A stretch of 32,000 nucleotides of DNA from the NCBI RefSeq assembly GCF_000981785.2, contig NZ_CP011304.1:1230001-1262000 (forward strand). Reading direction: 5' to 3'. The position numbers and the translations under genes are program-made. A model generated the notes under the pieces. It had not been told where the DNA came from, searched no databases, and was given only the letters and a program-made list of their open reading frames with translations. Numbering within the stretch: the first letter of the stretch is position 1; each line of letters opens with the position of its first letter. This document shows positions 10,376-32,000 of the stretch, piece by piece. This DNA is from Microcystis aeruginosa NIES-2549 (lineage in GTDB: Bacteria > Cyanobacteriota > Cyanobacteriia > Cyanobacteriales > Microcystaceae).

Positions 10376-10538
10376 AATTTTTTAGGGGATTAGGGAATGG
10401 GGAAATGGGGGATAAGAGACAGGCTGCATCTCAAGTTTGTGGAAATATCAAAAATTATTAATATATGAACAACTGCGTGTAAGTATCTCACAAAAAAAGC
10501 TAATGTACCCTTGCGCTTATGTACCCCTTTTCTAATTT

Positions 10539-11876: not shown

Positions 11877-12039
11877 GAACTGAGATTCTCATAGCTGTTT
11901 CGTGATTTTACCCCTAAAAGAAGACCGGTAAACGGGGTAAGTTCCCATTGATTCTTTCCTACCGACAAAAAAGACAGCCTATAATATAGGTAAGTTTGGG
12001 GCCGATTCTACCGCACACGACATTTTAGGGCTAGAGCTT

Positions 12040-13230: not shown

Positions 13231-13306
13231 ACTACTTTCAACCGGTCAAGGGGCGACCCCTTACCCTACACTGGGAGGAGAGAAAATAGCAGCGGAGCGA
13301 TCGAAA

Positions 13307-14455: not shown

Positions 14456-14478
14456 CAGGGAAAACTGGCCAAAAAAAA

Positions 14479-14499
14479 CTCTCCCCAAAAAAGGGAGAG
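14479..14499 (-). terminator. Intrinsic terminator after ndhE
   Basis: ctctccc-caaaaaa-gggagag hairpin. The plus-strand a8 run at 14471-14478 becomes a U-tract on the minus transcript. Located 23 nt past the ndhE stop. Confidence 0.6.
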
Positions 14500-14521
14500 A
14501 GAGGGGTAAATATTTAAAAGC

Positions 14522-14833
14522 TTACCATTTGAGCAGGTTAAACTGTTCCATATCGATGGTGTCGCGGTTACGATAGATAGTCAGGATAATCGCTAAACCC
14601 ACGGCTGCCTCGGCTGCCGCTACGGTAATCACGAAAATAGTAAAAATTTGGCCTCGGATATTAGCGGGGTCAAGATAGTTGGAAAAACCCATTAAGTTAA
14701 TGTTAACAGAATTGAGCATCAATTCGATCGACATTAAAACCCGGACGGCATTGCGACTGGTGACTAAACCGTAAATTCCGATACAAAATAAAGCCGCCGC
14801 TAATAACAAATAATACTCTAACTGAATCTGCAT
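14522..14833 (-). CDS. ndhE: NAD(P)H-quinone oxidoreductase subunit 4L (NdhE / NuoK)
   Basis: 103 aa, three TM helices, conserved [14 protein letters not shown]...[10 protein letters not shown]...[11 protein letters not shown]. Last gene of the ndhA-I-G-E order. Confidence 0.95.
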
Positions 14834-14852
14834 GATACCTCTTTTTTGGGTC

Positions 14853-15449
14853 TTATTTAGGGGCGGTTAATTCTCTAGGTCGTTCGGGTAATGTTAAGGC
14901 TGTGGCCGTAGGTTCTTCAGCTTTTAGGGTAGGGATAAGGTCACGACGAGCTAAAATAATTGCTCCGACCATCGCCATTAATAACAGCACAGAAGCTAAT
15001 TCAAAGGGTAGCAAGAAATCACTAAAGAAATGCTTACCGATTTCTACTAAAGTATTAGTCACAACGGCGGGAGAAGTGGTAGAAATTGACCAAGGTGTGA
15101 TTAAAACCATGGTCGATAACAGTACAAATAAACCCACACAAACTAAAGCAGTAGATGCCTGACGAATCCAACGTTTAGGAATATCAGAAAAGTCCTCTTG
15201 CTTGTTAACAAGCATAATAGCAAAGAGAATTAAAACGTTAATCGCACCCACATAAATTAGAATTTGTGCCGCCGCTACAAAGTCAGCATTTAGTAAGAGA
15301 TATAAACCCGAAATGCTGATAAAAACACCGCCCAATAAAAAGGCGGAATAAACGATATTAGATAATAGTACCACGCCTAAAGCTGTCCCGATTACTAGGG
15401 CTGCTAAAATGCCAAAAGATACTATTTGAACGCCCTCGGCTAAATTCAC
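14853..15449 (-). CDS. ndhG: NAD(P)H-quinone oxidoreductase subunit 6 (NdhG / NuoJ)
   Basis: 198-aa hydrophobic protein ([22 protein letters not shown]) in the canonical position between ndhI and ndhE. Confidence 0.9.
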
Positions 15450-15503
15450 AGTAGTTTCATCTCCTTTTATGTTTGAGAGTTATTAATTATTAGTTATCAG
15501 CTT

Positions 15504-15567
15504 CTGAAGGCAAGAGGTAACAGGCAAGAGGCAAAAGACAGAATCTGGCAATTCTCCTACCTAAAAA
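15504..15567. repeat. Dispersed intergenic repeat, copy B, inside the ndhI-ndhG spacer
   Basis: ctgaaggcaagaggtaacaggcaagaggcaaaagacagaatctggcaattctcctacctaaaaa. The 28-mer core is identical to copy A at 5627-5705. Confidence 0.8.
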
Positions 15568-15594
15568 CCGTGACGGCTGATAGCTAACTGCTAA

Positions 15595-16167
15595 TTAATC
15601 AGTAATTTCTTCCGGACGTTTACCGGCGCGTTGACTACCGGCGGGTAAATCGTGGGGTTCGATGACACCTTTAGGCAGATAACCTAATTCCCTCAGAGGT
15701 GTTACCATCGGGTCTTGGGTGACTTTGTAGGGTAAACGGCCTAGGGCGACGTTATCATAGTTTAATTCATGACGATCATAGGTCGCTAGTTCGTATTCTT
15801 CGGTCATCGATAGGCAATTAGTCGGACAGTACTCTACACAATTACCGCAGAAAATACAGACCCCAAAATCGATACTGTAGTGTTTGAGTTCTTTCTTTTT
15901 AATTTCCTTGTTAAAAGTCCAATCCACTACTGGTAAATTAATCGGACAAACTCGCACACAAACTTCACAGGCGATACATTTATCGAACTCAAAGTGAATT
16001 CTACCCCGATAACGTTCCGAGGGAATTAACTTTTCGTAGGGATACTGAACGGTAATCGGACGACGACGCATATGGTCGAAGGTAACGGATAAACCTTCGC
16101 CGATGTATTTCGCCGCTTGAATGCTACCTTTGGCGTAATCGCTGACTTGTTTGAGGATGTTAAACAT
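15595..16167 (-). CDS. ndhI: NAD(P)H-quinone oxidoreductase subunit I (NdhI / NuoI), 2x[4Fe-4S] ferredoxin-type
   Basis: 190 aa with two CxxCxxCxxxCP motifs ([12 protein letters not shown] and [12 protein letters not shown]). Confidence 0.95.
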
Positions 16168-16209
16168 GATGGTCAGAGGTATAGTAGGTTAACAGGGCAA
16201 AAACGGGAA

Positions 16210-17328
16210 TTAACCGCCAAAAGCAAAGGGAAAAGCTAGTTTTAGGGCGGCGGTAAGTAGTAGGTTAACTAAAGATACCGGTAAAAGGAATTTCCAGCCT
16301 AAATCGAGTAATTGGTCAATGCGAACCCGGGGTACAGTCCAACGCAAGAGAATAGCGATGAAGATGAGAAAATAGGCTTTTAATACCGTCATCGTAATCC
16401 CGAGGGAAGCGGTGATAATTTGTAGCCAAGGATTGGTTTCACTCACTCCCAACCAGCCGGCCACAGCATTGACGGGGATAGGAAATTCCCAACCACCAAG
16501 ATAGAGGACGGCGAAAACTAGGGCCGACAGCACGAGGTTAACGTAGGAACCCACATAAAAGAGAGCGAATTTCATCCCCGCGTATTCGGTTTGATAACCG
16601 GCGACTAATTCCTCCTCCGCTTCTGGTAAATCGAAAGGCAGACGTTCACACTCAGCTAAAGCGGCAATCCAGAAAATCAGAAAACCCACCGGTTGGCGCC
16701 AGATATTCCAGCCTAAAATGCCATAACCGGATTGTTGTTCGACAATATCAATGGTACTGAGACTATTAGACATCATCACAATCGCTAATACCGATAAAGC
16801 CAAGGGAATTTCATAACTAATCGATTGCGCCGCCGCCCGTAGGCCTCCCAGTAAGGAATACTTATTATTTGAGGCATAACCCGCCATTAATAAACCAATG
16901 GGGGCAATACTGGACAAGGAAATCCATAAAAAGATACCCACGTTTAGGTCAGTAATCAGCAGATTTTGACCGAAGGGGACGATGAGGTAGGAGACAAACA
17001 CCGGCATCACCACCAAAATTGGCCCAAAGAGGAATAACCAAGGGTCAGCTTTAGCGGGGACGACATCTTCTTTAAAGACTAATTTCAGACCGTCGGCGAC
17101 CGGTTGTAAAACGCCCAAGGGTCCTGCGTATTCCGGCCCGATACGCTGTTGGACGGCGGCGGAAATTTTCCTTTCTAACCAGACGCAGACTAAAACCCCC
17201 ACTGTGGCGGCTATAATCATCAGGAACATGGGTAAAGGCATCCAAATCGCTTTAGCCAGTCCTCCACTTAATCCCAAGTCTGTTAGGGATTTAATGAAAC
17301 TTTCTTGTAAATCTATGCCTTGATTCAT
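16210..17328 (-). CDS. ndhA: NAD(P)H-quinone oxidoreductase subunit 1 (NdhA / NuoH)
   Basis: 372-aa polytopic membrane protein with conserved NuoH motifs ([45 protein letters not shown]). Confidence 0.95.
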
Positions 17329-17739
17329 ATTTGGCGATCGCTGTACTGTCGATAGTTCGGCATGGTCCGAAGATTTTTAAGCAAATCTTATAGCCTAGTA
17401 TACAGTTAGTCGGTCTGAGGGTTATCAGAAAGTGATAAAGGCTTCAATTCTTAGCGGCCAAGAGAATCAAGCAATCTTGATTCCCCGTCCGAGAATAGCT
17501 ATTAGTCAATCGTTAGACTCTGAATCTATCAATGTTCTCATTTGTTTCTTAGTGCCGACAACCTCAGCTAGTTACCAATTATTCACAGGAAAAAAATGTA
17601 AATAACTTATCGTTTAGGCAATGAAAGCAGCCCGCTTGAATCTGTCTTCCTCTTTGTGTTCTTTGTGCCTTTGTGGTTTATCCCCAGAGCCAATCCGACT
17701 GTTAAAATCCAGTTATCGAGCGTTTCTCGCCACTCCCCG

Positions 17740-18327
17740 CTATTGATTATGATAAGCCGCCTGTAGATCCCGAATCGAAAACAAAGCTTGAAACTTTATT
17801 CCCTGAGATTGGTAAAATTCCGCCCCTCCTTGCTCTCTATCCACCAAAGCAATGATTAAATCTACTTGATAACCCGCATCGCGTAATCTTTCTACCGCTA
17901 CCATGGCACTTTTCCCCGTTGTCACCACGTCTTCGAGGACAACCACTGCGGCACCGGGGTTTAAAGTCGGCCCCTCGATATAAGCCATGGTTCCGTGACC
18001 TTTTGCCTCTTTGCGGACGATTAAAGCTGGAATCGGGCTATTTTCGTAGGCAGATACCACACTAACCGCGCTGACAATCGGATCCGCCCCTAGGGTTAAT
18101 CCTGCCACCGCTTGGGTATCTGGAGGCAGTAGAGACAGCAATAAACGCCCCACGGCTAAAGCTCCCTCAGCAGTGAGAGTAACTTGTTTGCCGTTGATAT
18201 AGTAGCTGCTTTTTTGTCCTGAAGACAGGGTGAAATCTCCCTCTCGATAGGCAAGACGGACAAGAGCATCGAGGAGAAATTGACGCAGGGAAGCAGTATC
18301 GAGATTCGCTACCGAGGAATTAGCCAT
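17740..18327 (-). CDS. pyrE: Orotate phosphoribosyltransferase
   Basis: PRPP-binding motif VVVLEDVVTTGKS and GDFTLSSGQKSSYYING. Start placed at ATG 18327 (196 aa, MANSS...) instead of the track's 18429, which would add an atypical 34-aa extension. Confidence 0.85.
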   Translation of the reverse strand: MANSSVANLDTASLRQFLLDALVRLAYREGDFTLSSGQKSSYYINGKQVTLTAEGALAVGRLLLSLLPPDTQAVAGLTLGADPIVSAVSVVSAYENSPIPALIVRKEAKGHGTMAYIEGPTLNPGAAVVVLEDVVTTGKSAMVAVERLRDAGYQVDLIIALVDREQGGAEFYQSQGIKFQALFSIRDLQAAYHNQ

Positions 18328-18482
18328 ATTTTCAGGATTGGGAGTCTGACTGACTCCAAAATTTCGGTTACAATTAAGCCAAAAGTCATTATATATTGCC
18401 TCGATCGCTAGTATTGATTTCTTTCTCATCCCATTGAAGCAATTTTTTAATTAACCTTGCCCCTGTGAGGAGGTTTTCACCC

Positions 18483-18935
18483 ATGCGCGCTCAATTTTTA
18501 CTCCCTTCCCTGTTTTGTTTAACCGGTTTAGTCTGGTTGAGTTCGCCTATTGCGATCGCCCAACGTTCACCCGCCACCAATCCGGCGCCGGTAAAAATCC
18601 AACAATTGCAACTTGTCCCCTCTCCCGATACGGCGGTGGGATTTAATAATATCCCCGGTTTGTTTAACCGCGCTGTTAATAATAATACCGGTCGTTTCTA
18701 CGACTACACCAACATTTTAGGACAGTTCAACTCTCTTTTGGGTTGGCGTACTTTTCCCCAGGGTTCTTATTTCGATAATATGATTACCCGGGATGCTAAA
18801 TTGACCGAAGCTTTATACTATGATGTCATGCAACAGCAACAGTCTGGGCCTTTAATTCGCACCCAAGATCTACCCAATCCCTTCGATACTTCCCTACAGG
18901 AAAATCCCAGTTATTTAAGCCCCGGCGGCTTTTAA
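18483..18935 (+). CDS. Hypothetical secreted protein
   Basis: ATG at 18483 lies 8 nt after GAGGAGG. Signal peptide MRAQFLLPSLFCLTGLVWLSSPIAIA. No family recognised. Confidence 0.5.
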   Translation: MRAQFLLPSLFCLTGLVWLSSPIAIAQRSPATNPAPVKIQQLQLVPSPDTAVGFNNIPGLFNRAVNNNTGRFYDYTNILGQFNSLLGWRTFPQGSYFDNMITRDAKLTEALYYDVMQQQQSGPLIRTQDLPNPFDTSLQENPSYLSPGGF

Positions 18936-19049
18936 TTCGCCAATTTAACTCGCAATTGGCTAACAATGTAATCGGTCGAGAATCTTCTTTGAAGGTTCCC
19001 GAACTGCGGCAATATATCTTTTTAAGTTCAATCGAAGCTCCCTGAGAAG

Positions 19050-21044
19050 CTAAACTCTCACCCATTTGGCAATATCAAGGGTTTTGTCATAACGATAGCT
19101 CATGCCATCATTGGCAACAATCGTTTGACCTCGACTGGCTTTATTTTTGATCGTACTTAAGCTATAGTTGGTCAGTTTTTGCATTTCTTGATGGGTAAAA
19201 TTGTCTTGATTGTTCATTTCAGAGACAATTTCTATCGTTTCATCAACGGTTTGGTCATTGTTAGAATGAGTTGCAATCACTGCTGATGGATGATAGTCTT
19301 CCATCCTCATTAAGCGCCAAGTAGAATCCTCGGACAGTTCCAAAACCTTTTGATGGTAGTTAAACAAACTTTCTCGATGTCCGACACTAATAAAGGTCTT
19401 GCCAGTTTGTTGTAACTGTTTATATAAATGATCTTCATTTTTTAAATCTAAAGCACTGGTGGCTTCATCTAAAATTACAAAATCTGGCTGATTAACGAAT
19501 AGTCGCGCAAAGGCTAGACGCTGTTGTTCTCCTAAAGATAAAATATTTTCCCAATCCACTTCCTCATCAAAATTTTTGATGCGATTAAGAACATCTTGCA
19601 GGTTAACTTCTTGTAAGATTTCTTTTAATTGGAATTCACTCATCTCCGTTGTCGTTTGAGGATAAATTAGCTGTTCGCGCAAGTTTCCTAAAATGATATA
19701 AGGACGTTGGGGTAAAAATAATAAATCGTCGAGGGGAGGTCGCACCAAATGACCTGTACCTGTATTCCATAACCCAGAAATAGCGCGTAAAAGAGAACTT
19801 TTTCCTCGACCACTTGGCCCAACAATTAATAAACCTTTCCCTGGTTCAACGGATAGGGATAAATGTTCGACAATCACTTTAGCGGCATCGGGAGTTTGTA
19901 AGGTGACATCCTCAAAAGCTAGATTGTTATCTTCAATGACTTTAATGGTATTAACTGGGGTTTTTTGTTTGCTTACACCCTCTAAAGCTTGGTAAAACTC
20001 TTCTAAACGTTCAATATAATTAATAAACTCACCGGAGCGTCCAAATTCATCCACTAACACGGATAAGGCTGTGGAAAAGAAATAGCAACAATAGCTGGCT
20101 TGGTTAACTTGTCCAAACTCAATTTCACCACTAATATATAATGGGGAAACAATTAAGAAGGGGAAGATTTGAACAATGGATTGATAGCCGCGGTTAAAAA
20201 ATTCTTGGGTTCTTTCCCAATTAATTCTTTCAATCATGATTTTAATCACCTGATTGAACTTTCTGTGAATAATATTTAACTCTTTTTCTTCCCCTCTAAA
20301 AAATGCAATTGATTCAGCGTGAGTCCGAACATGAGTAATGGCGTATTTATAGGTTCCTTCGATTTCTAATTGTTGTTTATTGACTTTATTTAGTTGTTGA
20401 GTAATATAGGTGGCAAGAATATTTCCAATAATCGTATAAACCAGAAGCACAATAGAAATGCTTTTAGAAATTGACCAAAGGATGACAATAAAAACCAGCA
20501 TCTCCATAACTTTTTCAACACAGGTTGTTAAAAAGTCCATCGTTGTTCTGGCAATGGGTTGAATTTCTTGGGATAAACGTTGATCTGGATTTTCAATATC
20601 TCCTTTAAAATTAATTTGATAATAAGCACGATTTTTAAAATATTTTTGCAAGATACTACTATTGATCCATTGATACCAATCCAGCGCAATTAGTTTTTTA
20701 AGAAACCTAGACAATCCTGTGAAAAACGTCATACTGCCTAGAGTAATCCCATAAATAATGACAAAATGAGTTAATTTTTCTGCATCCCTAGCTTCTGTGA
20801 CGCTAATTAAGTCTCTAAAAACAAAACTATTAAACGCATTAAGACCTACTACTCCCACTAATAATAAAAACAATAAAACGAGCATTCCCCAGGAACGAAT
20901 AATCTGCGAAAAAGCTCTATCCTGGTGTTCTTTAGGATACCAATAAACTTGAATAAATCTTAAAAATTCTTGAAGAGATTGATTGAAAGTTCGAGTCTCT
21001 TGCTTGAGATTCATGCTGTCTGAGGTTTTTTCTGCAACATTCAT
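19050..21044 (-). CDS. Fused permease/ATPase ABC transporter (ABC_membrane_2 / SbmA-BacA / ABCD-like), probable exporter of the NRPS product
   Basis: 664 aa with an N-terminal 5-6 TM domain, Walker A GPSGRGKSSLL, signature LSLGEQQRLAFAR, Walker B FVILDEATSALD and H-loop SVGHR. An extra C-terminal tail of about 85 aa is present. Last gene of the minus-strand cluster. Confidence 0.85.
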   Translation of the reverse strand: MNVAEKTSDSMNLKQETRTFNQSLQEFLRFIQVYWYPKEHQDRAFSQIIRSWGMLVLLFLLLVGVVGLNAFNSFVFRDLISVTEARDAEKLTHFVIIYGITLGSMTFFTGLSRFLKKLIALDWYQWINSSILQKYFKNRAYYQINFKGDIENPDQRLSQEIQPIARTTMDFLTTCVEKVMEMLVFIVILWSISKSISIVLLVYTIIGNILATYITQQLNKVNKQQLEIEGTYKYAITHVRTHAESIAFFRGEEKELNIIHRKFNQVIKIMIERINWERTQEFFNRGYQSIVQIFPFLIVSPLYISGEIEFGQVNQASYCCYFFSTALSVLVDEFGRSGEFINYIERLEEFYQALEGVSKQKTPVNTIKVIEDNNLAFEDVTLQTPDAAKVIVEHLSLSVEPGKGLLIVGPSGRGKSSLLRAISGLWNTGTGHLVRPPLDDLLFLPQRPYIILGNLREQLIYPQTTTEMSEFQLKEILQEVNLQDVLNRIKNFDEEVDWENILSLGEQQRLAFARLFVNQPDFVILDEATSALDLKNEDHLYKQLQQTGKTFISVGHRESLFNYHQKVLELSEDSTWRLMRMEDYHPSAVIATHSNNDQTVDETIEIVSEMNNQDNFTHQEMQKLTNYSLSTIKNKASRGQTIVANDGMSYRYDKTLDIAKWVRV

Positions 21045-21227
21045 AGGATTCTCTTTACTCTAAAATGGGGTACATTAGAACTTTTAAGGTCTATTTATTG
21101 AGTTAGACACTAATTCAGCATACCATAAAAATCTGCATTATTATCACAAATTCTATTACTACTATTTTCTAGATTTTTTACATATCAGTAATCAATATTA
21201 ACCTATTGTTTAGGCATTGGATCAGAT

Positions 21228-21836
21228 TCATAATCGTTTGATAATTTTGGCAGGATTACCAGCAACAACAGTAAAAGGTTCTACATCTTGTGTCACCACC
21301 GAACCTGCTCCAATAATTGCTCCTTTCCCAATCGTAACCCTTTTAAGAATCGCAACATTAAATCCAATCCAAACATGATCTTCTATCACCACTGGTGCAG
21401 ATTTTATATCAAGATATTTAGCATCCTTAATCAGATTATTTAAAATGACGACTTCCACAAATTATTTCTGTCTTAAAACATAATTTAATGAATGAGCATC
21501 GGTATCATAAATATTGACATCATCGGCAATTATAACTTCATTGCCAATTTTGATAGAATTTGCTGATCTAATTCCAGTTTTCTCACCAATATAACAATTT
21601 TTACCGATTTCTATTTTTCCACCATGAGTAAATAAAAACAATTCACCTAATATTATGGTATTTTCTCCGATAGTAATTAAACTTTTATCTCCCCTATAAT
21701 TTTCACACTTTCCGATAAATTTGACTGAACTGTGAAACGTGGCATTTTCAGAAAGTTGTTGACGTTTTTCGATCCGTTCTTGTTCTTCTAAGAATTTTGA
21801 AATTAATAAATATAATTGATGTTTTAAGTTAAACAT
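21228..21836 (-). pseudogene. Hexapeptide-repeat acyl/acetyltransferase interrupted by a single in-frame TAA (21462-21464)
   Basis: ORFs 21462-21836 and 21228-21458 are in the same frame, separated only by TAA plus one codon (...DTDAHSLNYVLRQK*FVEVVIL...). Together they give a roughly 200-aa left-handed beta-helix transferase (IGNEVIIADDVNIYDTDAH ... VWIGFNVAILKRVTIGKGAIIGAGSVVTQDVEPFTVVAGNPAKII). Confidence 0.7.
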
Positions 21837-21900
21837 AAGATTGATTTCGTGGAATTTATGATCTGGATTTTTGAATTTAGGGGTGTGATAAAATCGACAT

Positions 21901-24900
21901 TTATTGTGTTAAAAACCCACTTTTAGTAAAATATTCAAAATAAGTTTTTAACAATCTGTCATCAATTTTGGGAAAATTAAAGGCTGTACCCTTTAACCCC
22001 ATTACCGTATTTTGAGCATCAAACTGGGGGGGATAACCTGCGGATAAATTTTCATCTGAAAAATTATCTAACACCGGAGATAAAGCATTATCTGTATTAA
22101 TTTTACATTGTTCTGTTAAATGCGATCGCCATTTTTCCAAGGAAACACACTGCAACGGATAACCCATTTCCCGAACACAATCAAATAACTCACGATTTAA
22201 GGTTGGGTGAGAATTCAACAAATGAAATGCTTTCCCTAAAGAGGTTTCTTGACTGGCTAAATGTACAATTGCACCACTGACATAATCCACAGGAGTGAGG
22301 TCTTCTGTACTATCGCCAAAATCAGGAATCATTCCTAATTGAATACAGCCTTTAATCATACGACAAAACAAATCTTCTCTATTACAAATTCCGGTTTTAC
22401 TATGTCCAATAATTCGAGACGCTCTAAAAATTGTCATCGGAAGTCCTCGTTTTCCAGCTTCCATGATTAATTTTTCGGCAACCCATTTACTTTGAGTATA
22501 ACCGGCATTGAGTCCATGATTTATACCCAGGGGATCAGATTCTTGAATTAAGTTTCCTTGAGCATAACTGGGGGAAAAAACAGAAATCGTCGAGACAAAA
22601 TGAACAGGTTTGGTTTTAATTAAGCAGGCTAATCTCAAGATTTCTGCTGTTCCTAAAACATTAGTGGGTTTCAGTATTGAATAGGGATAAATAGCATTCA
22701 CCCAAGCTCCATTATGATAAATCACATCAATTTGATTGGCTAATTCCAGAAAATCAGGTTCACACATTCCTAAACGTTTTTGGGATAAATCACCAATAAC
22801 AGGAATAATACGAGAGCTTTTCTGTTCATCCCATAATTGAAAGGTTTTTAATTTCTGGTAAATTTTCGCTTGAGCTTGTTCTAAACTTTTGTCTCGAATT
22901 AAACAATGAATATTAGCTTCTGTTTTGTCTAATAATTCAGCTAATAAATGAATTCCGAGAAAACCCGTAGCTCCTGTGAGCAAAATATCAGCAGGTTTTT
23001 GAGGAAAGGGAGCCACAAGATTCGGCGGTTGAATGGAGGTATCTAAGGTAATTTCGACTTGCCAATCTGGGATTTGATCACTCTCAATTGTATCAGATAA
23101 ATTCAAGTCTAAATTAGAGGATAATCCTGCTACCGTCGGTTCTGAAAAAAGATAGTTTAAAGGAATATTAATAGCTAATTGTTCTCGCAGTCGAGAAATC
23201 ACTTGGGCAGCTTTTAAAGAATGACCACCTAAGTCAAAGAAATTATCGAAAATACTAATTTGCTTTAACCCTAAAACATCTTGCCAAATCTCAGCAACAA
23301 TTTTTTCTGTAGCTGTTCGGGGTGTAATCATCGTTTTTTGCTCCCGAATTTCGGTGGGTGCGGGTAAAGCGTTACGATCAATTTTCCCACTGCTCATTAA
23401 GGGCAATTCTTGAAGCTGTACAAAGAAAGCTGGAATCATATAATCTGGTAATTTCTGTTTGAGAAAACTCCGCAATTTTGCAGGATCAATGGATGGGTAT
23501 TTTGGCACAATATAAGCCACTAATTGTTTATTATTTGTTTGATCTTCTCTAACAATTACCGCCGTCGCTCGGACATCTGTGTATTCAGTTAATACGGCTT
23601 CAATTTCGCCAATTTCAATACGAAACCCTCGAATTTTAACTTGATTATCAATGCGTCCTAAAAACTCTATATTTCCATCGGGTAAATAACGAGCTAAATC
23701 TCCAGTTTTATAGAAACGTTGATATTCTGATGAATTAAAAGCATGAGTAATAAATTTTTCACGGGTTAAATCATCGCGATTGAGATAACCTTTGGCCAAA
23801 CCTAAACCTCCAATTAACAGTTCTCCTGGTATTCCAATCGGGACTTGTTGCAAATAGCGATCACAAATATAAACCTGTGTATTTGTAATCGGTTTACCAA
23901 TGGCAACAGAATGAATTTGAGCAATTTTATGACTCAAATTGGGATTAAAAACCGTGGTGGTTATCGTCGCTTCTGTCGGACCATAAGCATTCAACCAAGT
24001 GATATCTTCTCGTTGACTATTTGATAGGATTTTTTGCCATAATATTAATCGCTCTGCTAATACTTCTTCACTTCCTGTAATCACTAAGCGTAGGGTTTCA
24101 GGTAAAGTTATTAAAGTTTGAGATAAATCTAATACCCATTCATGCCAATAAGTAGCTGGAAGATTAATTACCGTTAAACGATTGTGCTGAATAAATTGAG
24201 TAAAATCGGCTAAAGCAGGGAACATTAATGCAGGACGCATAACTAAAGTTGCACCCGTTAAAAAGGTTGGATAAATTTCTTCAGCAGCTACATCAAAGGT
24301 AAAAGAAGCAAATTGTAAAATTCGGTCACGACTTGTTAAATCATAGGCTTTAATAATTCCTAAGCTATGATTAACTAAACTTTGATGTTCAATCATAACC
24401 CCTTTAGGAGTGCCTGTTGAACCAGAGGTATAAATAATATAAGCTAAATTATTTGGCTGAATAGGGTTAACTAAATTGTTTTGGCTTTGACTAATAATTA
24501 AGTTTTCTTCAGTATCTAGACAAACCACTTTTGCTGGATGCTCATGGAATAAATTAATCAAGGTATTTTGAGTGATTAATACCGAGACTTGAGCATCATT
24601 TAAGATATAGTTTAAACGCTCTTGGGGATAATTGGGAGCTAGAACAAGATAAGCAGCACCGGTTTTAAGAATTGCCAAAAAACTGATAATAATAGATACA
24701 GATTGTTCTAAACAAATACCCACTAATGATTCAACTTTAACCCCCTTAGATTGGAGATAATGAGCTAATTGATTGGCACGATAATTTAAGTCTTGATAGG
24801 TGATTTTTTCCCTGCCCCATTCTATTGCGATCCCATTTGGATTTTTTAAAACTTGATGTTCAAATAATTCATGAATACAAACCTTTGGATTTTCAGCAAT

Positions 24901-26373
24901 ATTAGTCTGATTCCATTGAGCTAATAACTTTTGTTCTGATAAAGGTAAAATAGGTAATAATTCAATCGATTGTTCAGGATTAACGGCAATTCCTTCTAAT
25001 AAAGTTTTAAAGTGGGTAATCATGCGCTCAATTGTGTCTTGATTAAACAACGCGCAATTATAATCAAACGATCCAACTAAACCCTCAGTGGTTTCTTGCA
25101 TGGCTAAGGTTAAATCAAATTGAGCAATTAAAGCATTCATCGTGACGGGAGTTAATTTTAAATCCGCCATCGAAAAATGATTAATGTGCAGCATATCTTC
25201 CCAAGAAAACATCACTTGGAATAAAGGACTATAACTTATGTTTCGTTGAGGATTTACCGCTTCTACCACCTTCTCTAAGGGTAAATCTTGGTGTTCATAA
25301 GCTTCTAAAACTACTTGTTTGACTTGATTTAATAAAGCTTTAAACGAGAGATTTTCTTTAAACTGAGTGCGAATGGGTAAGGTATTAATAAAGCAACCAA
25401 TTAAGGGTTCAATTTCAGGAAATTGTCGATTTCCACTAGGAATTCCAATCACAATATCTTCTTGACTGCTATAACGATATAATAAAATATTAAAAGCCGT
25501 TAACAGCGTCATATTCAAAGTAGCGGTTGACGTTTGGCTAATATTTTTCAGGTTTTGGCTTAATTCTGGACTTAGTTTAAATGTACAATTATTGCCTTTA
25601 AACGTTTGTATGGGAGGACGAGGATGATCAGTGGGAATTTCCAATAACGGTGGAATTCCCGTTAATTTTTGTTTCCAATAATTAACTTCCTGGGTGAGTT
25701 TATCTCCTTGTAACTGTTGTCTTTGCCAAACGGCAAAATCACCATATTGAATAGGCAAATCGGGTAAAGGATTAGATTGTTTTTGTAAAAAAGCTTGATA
25801 TAAACGAGAAAGTTCTTGTAGTAAAACTTTCATTGACCAGCCATCAAAAATAGAATGGTGTAAACTCAAAAATAAAAGATAAGAATCAGCTTTTAATTTA
25901 ACCAAAAAAGTCCGCATTAAGGGAGCTTTGGTTAAGTCAAAGGGAGTATAAATTTCTTGTTCGGTTAATCGCTCTAATTCTTGGGTTTGTTCCCCAGAAG
26001 ATAAAGACTGTAAATCCAGCAAGGTAAAATTTAAATGAATTTTAGGGTTAATAATTTGTCTGGGAATTTCTTCAACTTCTTGAAAACAGGTCTGCAACAC
26101 TTCATGACGTTGCTTAATAGTTTCCAAAGCTTTTCTAAAGATATCAATATCTAAATTGCCTTCAATTTGAAAGCGAAACGGCATATTATAGGTATAGCCG
26201 TTAGCTTCTAATTGGTACAAAAACCAAAGTCGTTCTTGAGAAAAAGAAAGCGGTACAAGTTGAGACGGATCCCTAGTAGGTATCGTATTTGTTTTTACCC
26301 CGATTCCTTTTTTTTGTAGTAACAGCTTGAGTAATTTTTGTTTGTCTTGAGAGTTATGGTTCATCTTTGACAT
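21901..26373 (-). CDS. Non-ribosomal peptide synthetase, terminal module: C(LCL)-A-T-R (thioester reductase)
   Basis: 1490 aa. C1 PLSFSQERLWFL and HHSIFDGWS (about 25838-25860). A-domain motifs LAYIIYTSGSTGTPKG, NAYGPTE, YKTGDLARYLPDGNIEFLGRIDNQVKIRGFRIE and SGKIDRNALP. PCP FFDLGGHSL (Ser codon 23218-23220). C-terminal reductase LLTGATGFLGIHLL plus YTQSKWVAE (about 21904-22990). Confidence 0.95.
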   Translation of the reverse strand: MSKMNHNSQDKQKLLKLLLQKKGIGVKTNTIPTRDPSQLVPLSFSQERLWFLYQLEANGYTYNMPFRFQIEGNLDIDIFRKALETIKQRHEVLQTCFQEVEEIPRQIINPKIHLNFTLLDLQSLSSGEQTQELERLTEQEIYTPFDLTKAPLMRTFLVKLKADSYLLFLSLHHSIFDGWSMKVLLQELSRLYQAFLQKQSNPLPDLPIQYGDFAVWQRQQLQGDKLTQEVNYWKQKLTGIPPLLEIPTDHPRPPIQTFKGNNCTFKLSPELSQNLKNISQTSTATLNMTLLTAFNILLYRYSSQEDIVIGIPSGNRQFPEIEPLIGCFINTLPIRTQFKENLSFKALLNQVKQVVLEAYEHQDLPLEKVVEAVNPQRNISYSPLFQVMFSWEDMLHINHFSMADLKLTPVTMNALIAQFDLTLAMQETTEGLVGSFDYNCALFNQDTIERMITHFKTLLEGIAVNPEQSIELLPILPLSEQKLLAQWNQTNIAENPKVCIHELFEHQVLKNPNGIAIEWGREKITYQDLNYRANQLAHYLQSKGVKVESLVGICLEQSVSIIISFLAILKTGAAYLVLAPNYPQERLNYILNDAQVSVLITQNTLINLFHEHPAKVVCLDTEENLIISQSQNNLVNPIQPNNLAYIIYTSGSTGTPKGVMIEHQSLVNHSLGIIKAYDLTSRDRILQFASFTFDVAAEEIYPTFLTGATLVMRPALMFPALADFTQFIQHNRLTVINLPATYWHEWVLDLSQTLITLPETLRLVITGSEEVLAERLILWQKILSNSQREDITWLNAYGPTEATITTTVFNPNLSHKIAQIHSVAIGKPITNTQVYICDRYLQQVPIGIPGELLIGGLGLAKGYLNRDDLTREKFITHAFNSSEYQRFYKTGDLARYLPDGNIEFLGRIDNQVKIRGFRIEIGEIEAVLTEYTDVRATAVIVREDQTNNKQLVAYIVPKYPSIDPAKLRSFLKQKLPDYMIPAFFVQLQELPLMSSGKIDRNALPAPTEIREQKTMITPRTATEKIVAEIWQDVLGLKQISIFDNFFDLGGHSLKAAQVISRLREQLAINIPLNYLFSEPTVAGLSSNLDLNLSDTIESDQIPDWQVEITLDTSIQPPNLVAPFPQKPADILLTGATGFLGIHLLAELLDKTEANIHCLIRDKSLEQAQAKIYQKLKTFQLWDEQKSSRIIPVIGDLSQKRLGMCEPDFLELANQIDVIYHNGAWVNAIYPYSILKPTNVLGTAEILRLACLIKTKPVHFVSTISVFSPSYAQGNLIQESDPLGINHGLNAGYTQSKWVAEKLIMEAGKRGLPMTIFRASRIIGHSKTGICNREDLFCRMIKGCIQLGMIPDFGDSTEDLTPVDYVSGAIVHLASQETSLGKAFHLLNSHPTLNRELFDCVREMGYPLQCVSLEKWRSHLTEQCKINTDNALSPVLDNFSDENLSAGYPPQFDAQNTVMGLKGTAFNFPKIDDRLLKTYFEYFTKSGFLTQ

Positions 26374-26399
26374 GGATTAAATAGGATTTAATTTAGTGA

Positions 26400-26436
26400 T
26401 TTTAGGTTGTTTTCATGGATACAAATCAACCTAAAA
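26400..26436 (-). promoter_or_regulatory. Intercistronic hairpin (10-bp stem, 17-nt loop) between the SDR gene and the terminal NRPS gene
   Basis: ttttaggttg (26400-26409) is the exact reverse complement of caacctaaaa (26427-26436). Function unknown. Confidence 0.35.
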
Positions 26437-26454
26437 ATTGTTTAATTATTGATG

Positions 26455-27231
26455 CTAAATAGCGGTATAACCTCCATCTACCATTAAAATTGCTCCAGTT
26501 ACATAAGAGGAAGCTTCGGAGGCTAAAAACACGACAGGGCCAATTAACTCTTCTAAATCTCCGGTTCGTTTCATGGGAATTCTAGTATATAATTCGTCCA
26601 TTTCATCGGAAGTTGAACGTAAACCTTCTGTTCCTTCCATCATATTATTCATATACCCCGGTGCAAAAGCATTGACTCGAATTTTGTGACTAGCTAATTC
26701 GACCGCTAGGGATTTTACTAATTGATTGACCCCACCTTTTGCGGCGCTATATGCTCCTGAAGATTTGGGAACAGCAACGAAAGCACAGATAGAAGAATTC
26801 ATAATAATTGAACCTGCTGTTCCTTGTTTGATCATTTGTTTGGTTGCGAGTTGAGCGCAATTAAAATAACCTTTTAAGTCAACATTAATAACCTGATCCC
26901 ATTCAAATTCCTCTAATTCATCAGTGTTTTTGAGAATTTCAACCCCTGCATTACAGACCATAATATCGAGTTGACCATAATGAGCAACCGCCTGGTTAAT
27001 TAAATTCTGACAAGCTTGACGTTGACGAACATCGGTCTCAATTGCGATGGCTTCGCCTCCTGCTTCTTGAATCAGTTGAGCAGTTTGTTCAGCGCCAACT
27101 TGATTAATATCACCAATTACCACCTTAGCTCCAGCTTGTGCTAACCCTTGGGCTAATACCCGACCAATTCCTCGGGCAGCACCCGTGATAATTGCAACTT
27201 TACCTGTTAAATCAAAGAGATGATTTGTCAT
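26455..27231 (-). CDS. Classical short-chain dehydrogenase/reductase (FabG/gluconate-5-dehydrogenase-like)
   Basis: 258 aa with cofactor motif TGAARGIGRVLA, NAG, and catalytic S...YSAAK followed by PG. Confidence 0.9.
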   Translation of the reverse strand: MTNHLFDLTGKVAIITGAARGIGRVLAQGLAQAGAKVVIGDINQVGAEQTAQLIQEAGGEAIAIETDVRQRQACQNLINQAVAHYGQLDIMVCNAGVEILKNTDELEEFEWDQVINVDLKGYFNCAQLATKQMIKQGTAGSIIMNSSICAFVAVPKSSGAYSAAKGGVNQLVKSLAVELASHKIRVNAFAPGYMNNMMEGTEGLRSTSDEMDELYTRIPMKRTGDLEELIGPVVFLASEASSYVTGAILMVDGGYTAI

Positions 27232-27286
27232 TTTTTTCCTTCAGTTTAAATCAATGTCCATTATAGAAAGTTTAAGTCATTTAGGT

Positions 27287-30200
27287 TCAGCTTTGAGATA
27301 GTAAAGCTTGAACTTCTTCTGGTGAAAGTCTAGAAATTTCTTGAACTGTTACGGCAATTTCATTTAGTAACCCTTCATTCCCCACTAATTCAATCATGAC
27401 TTGAGTTAATTGGCTGATAGTTGAGTGATTAAAAAGTTGACGCACAGAAATTTCAATTTCTAAGGTTTGACGGATTTTACTAATCAGTTGAATCGCTTTT
27501 AAAGAATGCCCACCTAACAGAAAGAAATCGTCTTCAATCCCAATTCGTTCGACTTCTAAAATTTCTGCCCAAATTACCGCTAAAACTTCTTCAATTGCAG
27601 TTCGAGGAGCGACATAATTTTGAGTTAACGATAAGGGGTTTTTATCGGGTATTGGTAAGACTTTTCGATCAACTTTACCGTTAGGACTGAGTTGAAAAGA
27701 TTCCATCACAACAAAAGCAGAAGGAATCATATAATCGGGTAGCCAGTTTTCAAGGAAATGACGTAATTCAACTTGGTTTATGGTTTCACCTGGACGGGGA
27801 ATAAAATAAGCGGCTAGATATTTTTCTCTAGCTGTTTCTCCCTGAACTGTAGCAACAGCTTGGGCAATTTGAGGATGTTGATTTAAAATAGTTTCTACTT
27901 CCCCTAATTCAATTCTATAACCTCTAACTTTTACCCCATCATCAATTCTTCCTACATACTCGATGTCTCCATTGGGTAAATAACGAGCTAAATCTCCAGT
28001 TTTATACAGCAATGAATTCTCGCTAAAGGGATTAGGAATAAATTTTTCTTGGGTTAATTGGGAATTGTTGAAATAACCCCGCGCTAAACCGCCACCCGCA
28101 ACATATAACTCGCCAGTGACTCCGATGGGTACAGGTTGAAGATGAGAATTTAAAATATAAACTTGCACATTAATCGCGGGTTTACCAATGGGAATATACT
28201 TCGGCCAAAGCTCAGGATTGGTGTCAAAGGTATAACTGGTAACGATATCCGCTTCTGTGGGACCATAATAATTGTAAAGGGTACAATGTTCGAGTTTTTT
28301 GAATGTAGAAATCATCGTTGGAGTAATTTGTAATTGCTCTCCAGCTGAAATAATTTCACGCAAGTTAGCAAATAAGTAGGTTTCCTCACTATAGGTTTCA
28401 ATTAATTGCTGTAATAAAGTAACGGGCAAAATTGCTTTATGAATGGGGTTATTTGCCAATAATTGACTTATTTTAGCAAGGTCTAAGCGAGAATCTTCTG
28501 GAACAATAAATAAGCTTCCCCCTAAACACAAAGCGGCAAAGATTTCGTGATAGCTGACATCGAAATTAAAGGGAGCAAATTGTAAGAAATTCCTTGCGGA
28601 TGACATTTTTACTTGATGATGCTCAATAATATTCGTTAAGGATTGATGCAGGATCATAATCCCTTTTGGCACACCCGTAGAGCCTGAACTATAAATAATA
28701 TAGGCCAAATCCTTTAAACTCACGGGGTTGTCAAGATTAGTCTTGGGTTCTAAGGCAATTTCTGAACCTTGTTCATCCAATAAAATCCTTTGAGAAATGG
28801 TTTCACTGTTTAAGAGAGATTGACAATCTTTTTCGGTTAATAAGGTTTTAATTTGGGTATCTTGCAGGATGTAAGAAAGTCTTTCTTGGGGATAAGTTGG
28901 GTCTAGAGGAACACAAACGCCGCCTACTTTTAACACTGCTAAAACGGCAATTACCATATTAACAGACCGTTCTAAACAAATCCCGACTAAAGATTGATAA
29001 CTCACCCCAATTTTTCGTAAATAATGAGCCAATTGATTAGCGTATTCATTCAGTTCTTGGTAGGTTAATTGTTGCTCTTGAAAAACAACGGCAATGGCTG
29101 AAGTAGTTTTGAGAGTTTGTTGCTCAAATAATTGATGAACGCAGTGTTTTAGAGGCTTTTGGGGTGCAGTTTGATTCCATTCAATTAATAATAATTGACG
29201 TTCAGCTTCCGTTAATAAAGGTAAGTCTTGAATCCGACGATGGGGATTAATAGCGATTCCTTCTAATAAAGTTTTAAAATGACCTAACATCCGTTCAATG
29301 GTGTCATTTTCAAATCGTTCTTGAGGATAAATAATTTTAATACTTAAGGCTTCTCCAGGGGTGACAATAACCGTTAAGGGATAATCAGCATTGCCATAAT
29401 CTTGCATTTCACCGACTTGTAAACCGCCTAAATTCTGACTATCATTGTCGCTAAAGGGTAAATTTTCAAAGACAACAAAACTTTCAAAAACTGAATGAGG
29501 GGCTGGAATTTCACTCCATTTTTGAATATCAATTAGAGAACTATAACTATATTGCTCTCGTTCTAAATGCTCTTGTTGTAATTGTTGAAACCAAGTTAAT
29601 AATTCAAGTTGAGACTCAATTTGGATGCGAACGGGTAAGGTATTTAAAAACATCCCCACCATCGATTCAATCCCAGTAAAATTGGGCGGTCGTCCCGAAA
29701 CGGTTGCCCCAAATACAATATCAGATTCACTACTATAATGATGCAATAATAAAGCCCAAGCTCCTTGAATTAGGGTAGAAAGAGTAAGGCGATATTCTTG
29801 GGCGAGTAATTTCAGACGACTGGTAATTTCTGGAGAAAGTTTTGATTTTTGATCAAGATAATTTTTACTTTGAGTAACAAGAGGATTTAACGGTTTATCA
29901 ACGACTAATGGAGTTGGAGAGGTAAAACCTTGAAGATTTTTTCGCCAAAATCGTTCGGCTTCAGTTTGATCTTGCTGTTGTAGCCAATTAATATAGTCTT
30001 GATAAGGGCGGGGTGTGGGTAAATTGACGGGTTGATAGTTGATGAGTCCAGCGTAAAAATCGAAAACTTCTTTCAACAGAATTGCTGTTGCCCAACCATC
30101 TAATAAAATATGATGTCCAGTATGGATAAATTCATATTTTTGATCTTCGACTTGAATTAAATGACCTCGAAGTAAGGGGACTTTATCTAATTCAAAATAT

Positions 30201-30577
30201 TGCTCTTTATCAGAGGTTAATAATTCCTGAAATTTAGTTTCTTGTTCGGCGGGAGAATGCGCTCGCCAATCCTGATTAAACCAAGGTAAGGTGACATTTT
30301 TTCTAACCACTTGTAAAGGCTGTTTGGTTTTTTTCCAAGCAAAACAAGTCCGTAAAATACTATGTCTATCTACTACTTTTTGCCAAGCTTGTTGGAACGC
30401 ATTAATATCTAAATTGCCTTGCAAGGTGATTTGAATTTGTGATAAATACGTCTTTGATTCTGGATTATATAAAGAATGAAACAGCATCCCCTGCTGCATG
30501 GGAGAAAGGGGATAAATGGATTCAATATCTTTTTTACTAACCCTAGATTGTTGAGGTGTTACCATTATTTTTCCCAA
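27287..30577 (-). CDS. Non-ribosomal peptide synthetase module: C(DCL-type)-A-T with a C-terminal docking tail
   Basis: 1096 aa. The N-terminus YPLSPMQQGMLFHSL...LRTCF resembles C domains that accept D-aminoacyl donors. HHILLDGWA (about 30092-30115). A motifs LAYIIYSSGSTGVPKG, NYYGPTE, YKTGDLARYLPNGDIEYVGRIDDGVKVRGYRIE and NGKVDRKVLP. PCP FFLLGGHSL (Ser codon 27503-27505). Tail ...LSPEEVQALLSQS. Confidence 0.95.
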   Translation of the reverse strand: MGKIMVTPQQSRVSKKDIESIYPLSPMQQGMLFHSLYNPESKTYLSQIQITLQGNLDINAFQQAWQKVVDRHSILRTCFAWKKTKQPLQVVRKNVTLPWFNQDWRAHSPAEQETKFQELLTSDKEQYFELDKVPLLRGHLIQVEDQKYEFIHTGHHILLDGWATAILLKEVFDFYAGLINYQPVNLPTPRPYQDYINWLQQQDQTEAERFWRKNLQGFTSPTPLVVDKPLNPLVTQSKNYLDQKSKLSPEITSRLKLLAQEYRLTLSTLIQGAWALLLHHYSSESDIVFGATVSGRPPNFTGIESMVGMFLNTLPVRIQIESQLELLTWFQQLQQEHLEREQYSYSSLIDIQKWSEIPAPHSVFESFVVFENLPFSDNDSQNLGGLQVGEMQDYGNADYPLTVIVTPGEALSIKIIYPQERFENDTIERMLGHFKTLLEGIAINPHRRIQDLPLLTEAERQLLLIEWNQTAPQKPLKHCVHQLFEQQTLKTTSAIAVVFQEQQLTYQELNEYANQLAHYLRKIGVSYQSLVGICLERSVNMVIAVLAVLKVGGVCVPLDPTYPQERLSYILQDTQIKTLLTEKDCQSLLNSETISQRILLDEQGSEIALEPKTNLDNPVSLKDLAYIIYSSGSTGVPKGIMILHQSLTNIIEHHQVKMSSARNFLQFAPFNFDVSYHEIFAALCLGGSLFIVPEDSRLDLAKISQLLANNPIHKAILPVTLLQQLIETYSEETYLFANLREIISAGEQLQITPTMISTFKKLEHCTLYNYYGPTEADIVTSYTFDTNPELWPKYIPIGKPAINVQVYILNSHLQPVPIGVTGELYVAGGGLARGYFNNSQLTQEKFIPNPFSENSLLYKTGDLARYLPNGDIEYVGRIDDGVKVRGYRIELGEVETILNQHPQIAQAVATVQGETAREKYLAAYFIPRPGETINQVELRHFLENWLPDYMIPSAFVVMESFQLSPNGKVDRKVLPIPDKNPLSLTQNYVAPRTAIEEVLAVIWAEILEVERIGIEDDFFLLGGHSLKAIQLISKIRQTLEIEISVRQLFNHSTISQLTQVMIELVGNEGLLNEIAVTVQEISRLSPEEVQALLSQS

Positions 30578-30601
30578 TAGATTAAATAAAAATATGCGTG
30601 A

Positions 30602-30631
30602 GTTTCTTGAATCAAATTTTATTCAAGAAAC
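30602..30631 (-). promoter_or_regulatory. Perfect 11-bp stem / 8-nt loop hairpin between the sulfotransferase-like gene and the first NRPS gene
   Basis: gtttcttgaat-caaatttt-attcaagaaac. Lies in the 79-nt spacer 30578-30656. Could be a partial terminator, attenuator or processing site. Confidence 0.4.
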
Positions 30632-30656
30632 CTGATAAAATTAGAACGAATTACCT

Positions 30657-31601
30657 TTAACGTTGACTAGACCACTTGAGTTTAAATTTGTTAATTTCTT
30701 CATCGGTGTAAAAATGACGCACTAATGGTTGATCATAAATCTCTTCTAAATATTCATCACTAAAGGTCAGACTCTTTCTTAAATTATCATAGATGAGATA
30801 GTCATCCGCTTCTAAAAAGTCTGCTCGGTCAAGTCGTTCACAATCTAAATTTTCAACACCTAAAAAAGTTTCTAGGGCTTCTTTTAAGCAAGAATCAAGT
30901 TTTTCTAATTTTAAGACTAATAAGTCAATATTTCTGTCCGGGAAATTCGCAATCGCATAACCTTTTTCTTTCGGAAAATCAATGGAAGCGATATCAATGC
31001 CGAAAACTGGTTGCAATTCTTCTTCAAACCAGTCAAACTGCTTTCCATAAACAAATTTTTGAGACCAAAATTTTTTAATAATTTCATCCATTGTGATTAA
31101 TCCTTCTTGATATTTTATGAAAAATTCAGGAAAAACAGATTGACAATGAATGACTTGAAAAAACCAAGAAATATTACGGGCGATGGGTTCTCGGACTCCA
31201 GTAATAATTTTAATATTTTTTTGATTTTTAATTTCCTCAATGTGTTCGCTTAAATATTTGGTCATACAGGAATGCCCAAAGGTAAAAGCATGATAATGTT
31301 TCTCCAGTTGCATTGTTTTCCAAATTTTTGAGAAATGTTCTGAATTCAGATTATGAATATGATAAATAGCTTGATTTTGCAGATGTTTTTTTAGGGTCAA
31401 ATAGGTACTCATTGAACCGACTTTCCCCATTTGATAAACAAATATGACTGAAGAATTATTGAGAAGTTCTTGTTTTAATTTTCTTTCTGTATTCCACATA
31501 TTAATCCTATTATTCATATAGGAATACACGGGAAAAAACTGTTTATCTGCGATGGGATAATAGTTAAGAGCTTGGTTTGAGAGTTTAGTTTGTGTGTTCA
31601 T
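30657..31601 (-). CDS. Sulfotransferase-like protein (tentative)
   Basis: Start placed at ATG 31601 (314 aa), after the upstream SDR stop. GKVGSMST resembles the PAPS 5'-phosphosulfate-binding loop (PKxGS/TT), and VREPIARNISWFF resembles the 3'-phosphate-binding R-x-P-x-x-R-x-x-S motif. Otherwise no homolog recognised. Confidence 0.5.
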   Translation of the reverse strand: MNTQTKLSNQALNYYPIADKQFFPVYSYMNNRINMWNTERKLKQELLNNSSVIFVYQMGKVGSMSTYLTLKKHLQNQAIYHIHNLNSEHFSKIWKTMQLEKHYHAFTFGHSCMTKYLSEHIEEIKNQKNIKIITGVREPIARNISWFFQVIHCQSVFPEFFIKYQEGLITMDEIIKKFWSQKFVYGKQFDWFEEELQPVFGIDIASIDFPKEKGYAIANFPDRNIDLLVLKLEKLDSCLKEALETFLGVENLDCERLDRADFLEADDYLIYDNLRKSLTFSDEYLEEIYDQPLVRHFYTDEEINKFKLKWSSQR

Positions 31602-31632
31602 GATGCTTGTTGATGATGTTGGAGGGTTGAAT

Positions 31633-32000
31633 TTAAAATGCTGACGAGGATAAACCACCATCGATGGGAATAGTAATTCCCGTTATATAACTCGCACATT
31701 CTGAAGCTAAAAATACAACGAGATTAGCAAATTCTTCAGTCGTACCAATTCGATTCATGGGAATTGTTTTTAGAATTCCTTCTCGGATTAAATCTGGGGT
31801 TGTTCCTTGCTTTTTGGCATAAATTTCTAAATATTCTCGATGTCTAGGGGTATCAATAACGCCGGGGTTAACACTATTAATTAAAACATTATAGGGGGCG
31901 GTTTGTCTAGCTACTGATTTGGTAAAATTCATTAAAGCTGCATTGACAACACCCGATTTAACTAAACGAGGAGATGGCTCTTTTCCCGATGTCCCAATGA
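31633..32000 (-). CDS. SDR-fold reductase, C-terminal part only (CDS continues past the window edge)
   Basis: The reading frame stays open through nt 32000 (...IGTSGKEPSPRLVKSGVVNAALMNFTKSVA...VNPGVIDTP...FLASECASYITGITIPIDGG). This is a typical SDR C-terminal half. Confidence 0.75.
   Translation of the reverse strand, partial: IGTSGKEPSPRLVKSGVVNAALMNFTKSVARQTAPYNVLINSVNPGVIDTPRHREYLEIYAKKQGTTPDLIREGILKTIPMNRIGTTEEFANLVVFLASECASYITGITIPIDGGLSSSAF

Follow-up and report, generated by a model that had tools for sequence, protein, structure and literature searches.

Aeruginosins are serine-protease (trypsin, thrombin) inhibitors from bloom-forming cyanobacteria, and aer gene clusters account for which congeners a strain makes. 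We analysed a 32,000-nt stretch of the chromosome of Microcystis aeruginosa NIES-2549 (hereafter the window), the last 13 kb of which differs in composition from the rest and carries peptide-biosynthesis genes. Our results argue, with high confidence, that the 13 kb from nt ~19022 to 32000 form the downstream part of a ~28-kb aer cluster. Most likely, this cluster is a long-standing cassette at a fixed chromosomal site that recombines, is exchanged laterally and has repeatedly been lost by deletion.

Genes of the locus

Genes were called from a listing of open reading frames (ORFs) and from Pfam and NCBIfam scans, and were named after Entfellner et al. 2023 (PMC10744761) and by exact-sequence look-up. 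Seven genes, all on the minus strand, occupy 19050-32000, in order of coordinates aerN, ORF2, aerM, ORF1, aerG1, aerL and the 3' end of aerF. The earlier note on this DNA, made from the letters alone, had described seven consecutive minus-strand genes in this order and with these domain architectures, and every one of its gene calls is correct. The window proteins match NIES-2549/2481 entries exactly, and cluster members bear the names AerL, AerE, AerD and BacA/B/G-like.

The assembly line is represented by two non-ribosomal peptide synthetase (NRPS) genes. aerG1 (27287-30565; 1092 aa from the ATG at 30565) encodes the module that incorporates 2-carboxy-6-hydroxyoctahydroindole (Choi), with Pfam Condensation, AMP-binding and PP-binding matches for the condensation (C, 29186-30523), adenylation (A, 27674-29128) and thiolation (T, 27401-27586) domains. 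aerM (21901-26373; 1490 aa) encodes the terminal module C-A-T-R, where R is a reductase domain; its Condensation, AMP-binding, PP-binding and NAD_binding_4 matches place C at 24922-26259, A at 23383-24864, T at 23119-23298 and R at 21907-22986. The R domain scores 352 bits against the thioester reductase model TIGR01746 (cut-off 213) and carries the motifs TGATGFLG and YTQSK. Between the two synthetase genes lies ORF1 (26455-27231), a classical short-chain dehydrogenase/reductase (SDR) of 258 aa (adh_short_C2, 217 bits), which is labelled an oxidoreductase with a proposed action on the C-terminal residue (PMC10744761, PMC3765200).

The remaining genes encode tailoring, export and precursor functions. 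aerN (19050-21044; 664 aa; exact protein AKE63581/AOC51978, named aerN in PMC10744761) is an ATP-binding cassette (ABC) exporter with fused permease and ATPase (ABC_membrane_2, ABC_tran). ORF2 (21228-21836) is a pseudogene of a hexapeptide-repeat acyltransferase, maltose O-acetyltransferase-like, in two pieces (21228-21458 and 21462-21836) that share one frame and both match Hexapep. They are separated by an in-frame TAA at 21462-21464, where an intact 202-aa homologue (contig L002) has GAA (Glu125); the stop codon in NIES-2549 has already been recorded (PMC10744761). Upstream of aerG1 and cut by the window edge, the 3' part of aerF (31633-32000) encodes the C-terminal ~121 aa of a 266-aa BacG-like SDR of the Choi pathway (adh_short_C2).

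aerL (30657-31661) encodes a putative sulfotransferase, for which a permissive Pfam scan gave NKWYS (PF10364) only and whose relatives are named "AerL protein". The protein contains the stretches GKVGSMST and REPIARNIS, which by our own reading resemble the two motifs (5'-PSB and 3'-PB) that bind 3'-phosphoadenosine-5'-phosphosulfate. The presence of aerL tracks with sulfated aeruginosins (PMC10744761). Its longest ORF, of 334 aa, overlaps aerF by 29 nt (aerF stop at 31633), and database versions of 334, 314 and 280 aa exist. With the ATG at 31601 as its start, as annotated in Planktothrix, aerL encodes 314 aa and no longer overlaps aerF.

The genes past nt 32000 were read in the sister strain NIES-2481 (CP012375.1, our contig L001), which over 11.3 kb has 99.72% identity with the window. 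In transcription order it carries aerJ, a docking-domain FAD halogenase; aerB, a C-A-T-E NRPS (E, epimerisation) with two Condensation-type domains, A and T; aerK, FMN-dehydrogenase-like; aerD, a BacA-like prephenate decarboxylase, for which a PDB sequence search gave no match; aerE, a cupin; and the full aerF, a 266-aa SDR at 9229-10029, followed by the window genes. The Choi-forming genes aerD, aerE and aerF thus adjoin the NRPS genes, with the 3' end of aerF in the window and the rest in L001. A prephenate decarboxylase, a cupin and a C-A-T-E module had been forecast beyond nt 32000, and all three are present as aerD, aerE and aerB. The loading module forecast with them is found in related Microcystis contigs: in L091, aerA is a 1428-aa ORF with A, ketoreductase (KR) and PP-binding domains between aerJ and a SWIM-domain gene, and seven further Microcystis contigs have a gap of aerA-equivalent size. 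aerA is listed as conserved (PMC10744761).

Two observations concern these proteins and strains. AerJ (L091 2807-4684) and AerB (L001 1976-6748) both start with a TubC_N-type docking domain, as do McnD and McnE of the cyanopeptolin cluster discussed below; the common domain suggests that the trans-acting halogenase may dock on the assembly line just as the downstream synthetase does. The window and NIES-2481 differ at 32 positions over 11.3 kb, mostly synonymous and confined to short patches of aerM and aerG1 (25575-26152, 27702-27998, 30149-30172 and 30543-30567). These patches look like ordinary allelic recombination imports between near-identical strains. Gene conversion of paralogous segments, from aerM to aerG1 or the reverse, was considered and rejected, since the patch alleles do not track the paralogue.

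Base composition and HIP1 content

The aer half of the window is AT-rich, as had been claimed. The mean GC content is 0.438 at 1-19049 and 0.351 at 19050-32000, and in non-overlapping 500-nt windows it is 0.438+/-0.037 outside and 0.350+/-0.027 inside (Mann-Whitney p=1.6e-10). A sliding profile stays at ~0.40-0.50 before nt 19000 and at 0.30-0.385 from there to the window end. The drop had also been seen in the spot counts of the earlier note, whose outside values of 48-53% were taken from GC-rich lines and lie above the true flank mean of 44%. The shift is concentrated at third codon positions: the mean GC content at these positions (GC3) is 0.27 for the aer genes and 0.43 for the flank genes (p=1e-5). 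Over the aer cluster overall, GC is 0.35-0.36. The compositional outlier of the cluster is aerK (L001 6788-7831), with GC 0.448 and GC3 0.37 against ~0.36 and ~0.27.

The octamer HIP1, GCGATCGC (highly iterated palindrome 1), occurs 10 times in the window, where dinucleotide shuffles give an expectation of 0.16. The sites are at 532, 1731, 5099, 5213, 6070, 9759, 12604, 17334, 18552 and 22122; a count of at least nine outside and one inside had been given before and is right, with one position misplaced (9769 for 9759). The sole site inside, at 22122-22129, falls within the R domain of aerM. Within the window, the 9:1 split alone is weak evidence: it is marginal by a binomial test (p=0.044), and the rate of one site per 3209 bp published for the whole genome of M. 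aeruginosa NIES-843 (PMC2779907) gives P=0.09 for at most one HIP1 in 13 kb. The claimed depletion, marginal on this scale, is clear over the whole ~28-kb cluster, with two sites against 8.7 expected (P=0.008).

The contrast between cluster and flanks is much stronger with the HIP1 core CGATCG than with the full octamer. This hexamer is observed 35 times in the right flank (3.4 expected), and 8 times (1.5 expected) and 13 times (1.9 expected) in two copies of the left flank, whereas the two parts of the aer DNA hold one copy each (2.5 and 0.85 expected). CGATCG is thus ~5-10-fold enriched in both chromosomal flanks and not enriched in the aer cluster.

The signature also occurs outside aer. 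By way of mcnD, a halogenase paralogue, we reached a locus of the unrelated mcn (cyanopeptolin) cluster (L170/L171), in which 16 kb of mcnC-mcnD-mcnE contains no HIP1 and one CGATCG (2.4 expected) at GC 0.406 and GC3 0.30-0.33. Poverty in the HIP1 core and a lowered GC3 are therefore common to a second NRPS cluster, and Cadel-Six et al. 2008 (PMC2515870) had earlier reported a GC of 37.7% with GC3 of 26.8% for aerJ as well as for mcnD. In one Microcystis genome, microviridin-type genes, comprising Inhibitor_I10 precursor peptides and two MvdD-type ATP-grasp ligases, directly follow the cyanopeptolin cluster (L171 17061-19922), so that two protease-inhibitor clusters stand side by side.

The mcn data speak for an explanation in which AT-rich third positions and missing HIP1 are general to Microcystis NRPS clusters, owing to low expression or relaxed codon selection, to the coding constraints of long repetitive NRPS genes, or to a shared mobile pool. 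We give this explanation slightly less than an even chance. The sample behind it is one other cluster, which is less AT-rich than aer (GC 0.406 vs 0.36), and aerK, at GC 0.448, is an exception to it. In addition, the non-NRPS genes aerD, aerE, aerF, aerL, aerN and ORF2 are also low in GC3, and NRPS coding constraints alone thus cannot explain the signature. The explanation is compatible with that of a long-standing, fixed-site cassette and complements it.

A wider proposal, which we regard as rather unlikely, is that aer and at least mcn form a distinct compositional class in Microcystis, kept free of the host's HIP1/CGATCG enrichment and GC3 level despite aer's fixed, genus-wide site. If this were true, either the process that builds HIP1 density would spare these clusters, or alleles from a shared Microcystis/Planktothrix pool would keep overwriting them and prevent their adaptation to the host's composition. 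HIP1-core density could then be used as a clock for gene flow in biosynthetic clusters, or as a marker of it.

Chromosomal site and allelic states

To the right of the cluster, we scanned one genome per species for the flanking phosphoribosyltransferase (PRTase)-like gene and mapped aer and flank proteins on the matches; to the left, a metagenome scan was made with the SWIM-domain gene. In at least six Microcystis species representatives, aerN adjoins hyp156-PRTase-ndhA, and in eight metagenome contigs intact clusters end with aerA beside SWIM/topA. The ~28-kb cluster is thus always at one site, between topA/SWIM and hyp156/PRTase/ndhA. The 156-aa flank protein (hyp156) itself had no match in an exact-sequence look-up.

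The same site is found in empty, remnant and decayed states. In the clean empty alleles L006, L085 and L096, hyp156 is followed directly by SWIM. L007 retains only a 5'-truncated aerN (residues 163-664). In L011, L089, L092 and L101, a recurrent remnant comprises an intact aerK between the final ~50 codons of aerB and the initial ~55 codons of aerD. The breakpoints are identical, suggesting a single ancestral event that later spread. aerK is the sole gene left intact in this deletion genotype (L011 8293-9348). In the decayed cluster of L008, residues 1-224 of aerG1 are fused to residues 954-1092, and only residues 1-113 of aerM are left.

Comparison with aer-free alleles defines the right junction as the intergenic segment 18937-19049, from the hyp156 stop to the aerN stop. 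The empty allele L085 follows the window through 18936, divergence starts at 18937 and the edge of the indel is at ~19022, in agreement with the change of composition that had been placed at about 18.95-19.05 kb. L085 shares the 12-mer AATATATCTTTT with window positions 19010-19021 (0 of 500 shuffles reach the score), and past it the empty allele runs straight into the SWIM-side junction across a TTTT(T) overlap (microhomology). Heptamer tandem repeats (AGGCAAC, CTGATCA, CAGTAAT-like) recur intergenically in the window at 4100-4128, 5631-5669, 5790-5835 and 15504-15567; in the aer-free alleles L085 (9899-9950) and L096 such repeats stand in place of the 18937-19009 segment.

Signs of an integrative element were sought at the locus. 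The right and left junctions resemble each other at chance level (362 of 500 shuffles score as well), and there are no long direct repeats. The window contains no inverted repeats, and scans over its whole length gave no tRNA gene and no Rfam match, so the window edge of the cluster lacks a tRNA-type integration target. No integrase or transposase domain was found with Pfam among the scanned island and boundary genes of the window and of homologous left-junction contigs from related strains.

Low GC and HIP1 poverty could also be read as recent horizontal acquisition, that is, as a foreign island from an AT-rich, HIP1-poor donor newly integrated in this strain. The GC3 and CGATCG contrasts given above and the sharp edges fit this explanation, as do Planktothrix copies that are 92-99.5% identical for most genes (86% for ORF2), and in cyanobacteria an anomalous oligomer content is accepted as a sign of gene transfer (PMC3497702). 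However, at least six Microcystis species representatives and many metagenome contigs have the cluster at this same site. Aer-free lineages often keep internal aer remnants there, which shows loss and not non-acquisition, and no integrase, transposase, tRNA or terminal repeat was found in the window or the left-junction contigs. Ancestral presence with repeated loss has also been inferred for both aer and mcn (PMC2515870, PMC3741299). Taken together, we consider recent acquisition very improbable. The region, which had been called an island, is one in composition and in presence/absence; it behaves as a fixed-site, often-deleted cassette with deletion remnants and not as an integrative mobile element.

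Predicted product, related clusters and minor features

The specificity of the assembly line was read from its C and A domains. AerG1 starts with the motif YPLSPMQQGMLFH and AerM with PLSFSQERLWFL; from general knowledge of C-domain subtypes, and not from a classifier, we take the former to be a DCL-type (D-donor-accepting) signature, as had been proposed, and the latter to be LCL-type (L-donor). The A domains were aligned to the Phe-activating domain of GrsA, whose reference code DAWTIAAICK was correctly recovered. The AerM code DVENIGAITK is the published Arg code of NIES-843 AerM, and the AerB code DAWFLGNVVK is a published Leu code (Fewer et al. 2013, PMC3765200, Table 2). The AerG1 code DVHIIAYIVK agrees at 8 of 10 positions with the published Choi code DVHICAYLVK (PCC 7806, NIES-98); it is of the Choi type, and not proline-like as the earlier note had it.

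A spumigin-type cluster (Hpla-Hty-Pro/MePro-argininal, from hydroxyphenyllactic acid, homotyrosine, proline or methylproline, and argininal), an option that had been left beside aeruginosin and that likewise has a terminal Arg module with reductive release and a third position resembling proline, was rejected as having practically no chance, because aerD, aerE and aerF, the genes for Choi, are the immediate upstream neighbours, the AerG1 code is Choi-type, the AerM code is identical to that of NIES-843 AerM, and the genes from aerJ to aerN include no methylproline candidate (zinc dehydrogenase, pyrroline-5-carboxylate reductase). The aeruginosin assignment stands.

We then propose a biosynthetic route from the domain content and the published pathway. 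AerA (A-KR-acyl carrier protein) would load 4-hydroxyphenylpyruvate and reduce it to Hpla, and AerJ would chlorinate. AerB, C-A-T-E with a Leu code, would add Leu and epimerise it to D-Leu. Choi would be made from prephenate by AerD, AerE, AerF and AerK. AerG1, with its DCL-type C domain, A and T, would couple the D-Leu-ending chain to Choi, and AerM, with an LCL-type C domain, an Arg-code A domain, T and R, would add Arg and reductively release the tetrapeptide as argininal, possibly reduced further to argininol. Sulfation would be performed by AerL and export by AerN. With the ORF2 acetyltransferase knocked out by its nonsense codon (GAA to TAA), no acetylated congener is expected.

Several points weigh against the reading of the locus as the downstream half of a long-standing aer cassette. 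aerA and the left junction are known from related contigs and not from the window's own strain. The product, a non-acetylated, chlorinated and sulfated Hpla-D-Leu-Choi-argininal or -argininol, is a prediction only. The roles of ORF1, ORF2 and AerK rest on literature proposals, and for AerL there is neither a sequence relative in the PDB nor a match to a Pfam sulfotransferase family. In addition, a clean empty site might in principle be the ancestral state, with insertion as the deepest event.

The locus is the same as the one described by Entfellner et al. 2023 (PMC10744761), in which NIES-2549 (CP011304) and NIES-2481 (CP012375) serve as the Microcystis aer reference. The gene order given there, aerA-J-B-K-D-E-F-L-G1-ORF1-M-ORF2-N, is the order found here, and the expected synteny with a known aer cluster is thus borne out. 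High similarity to "group 1" Planktothrix clusters and horizontal transfer between Microcystis and Planktothrix were also described there, and the finding is already known in all essentials. That paper is without HIP1/CGATCG depletion, GC3 values, or a chromosomal site with empty or remnant alleles. The quantified HIP1-core contrast, the mapped site with empty, remnant and decayed alleles, and the signature shared with mcn are modest additions. They bear on a question left open in 2008, namely how some lineages lose aer or mcn clusters as a whole; for the window itself the value lies in annotation, that is, in the predicted congener type and the loss of ORF2.

Other Microcystis clusters (PCC 7806, NIES-843 and NIES-98; Ishida et al. 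2009, as cited in PMC10744761 and PMC3765200) have the Choi genes, AerG1, AerJ, AerL and AerN in common with this one. AerM with a reductase is shared with PCC 7806 and NIES-843, whereas NIES-98 has aerG2 instead of aerM. The AerB code is for Leu here, as in Planktothrix CYA126/8, but for Tyr in PCC 7806 as well as NIES-843, and for Ile in NIES-98.

In the "group 1" clusters of Planktothrix agardhii (L165-L167), the gene order from aerJ to aerN is unchanged and GC is likewise ~0.36, and the aer copies hold 2-4 HIP1 sites. The chromosomal flanks are different, with an HdrB-like gene after aerN. An aerK remnant is present in L165 and L167, and ORF2 is intact (208 aa) in L165 and L167 and split in L166. 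Nucleotide identity with the window is 99.5% for aerL and 86-96% for the other genes (86% for ORF2). aerL (L165/L166 8905-9909 vs window 30657-31661) is thus far closer to Planktothrix than its neighbours are, which points to a very recent inter-genus exchange of the gene or a segment.

The aer cluster of Nodularia spumigena (Fewer et al. 2013, PMC3765200) shares the Choi code of AerG, the Arg code and R domain of AerM and an oxidoreductase like ORF1, and its product is released as argininal or argininol, which is also what we propose here. Unlike the present cluster, it lacks AerA, its first domain being a lipidating C domain. Nodularia's spu cluster has no Choi genes and uses Pro or MePro.

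The flank of the window has minor features of its own. A CRISPR-like array at 2108-2531 comprises six copies of the 36-nt repeat GTTTCCAACTAATCCTATTTGACCTAATAGGTAAGG at a spacing of 74-78 nt, with unique spacers. The reverse complement of the repeat ends in GTTGGAAAC, and its hairpin is weak (-4.9 kcal/mol, no better than shuffles). No cas gene lies within the window, and the array therefore looks orphan. Beside it, in the ORF-poor stretch 1950-4130, a 74-aa ORF at 3274-3498 (MPKNLIYYLEKIPDFREPRGCRHRL...) resembles the N-terminus of an ISAs1/H-repeat-type transposase and is presumably a transposase fragment. Finally, an intergenic element of ~64 nt is duplicated, at 5627-5705 and 15504-15567.

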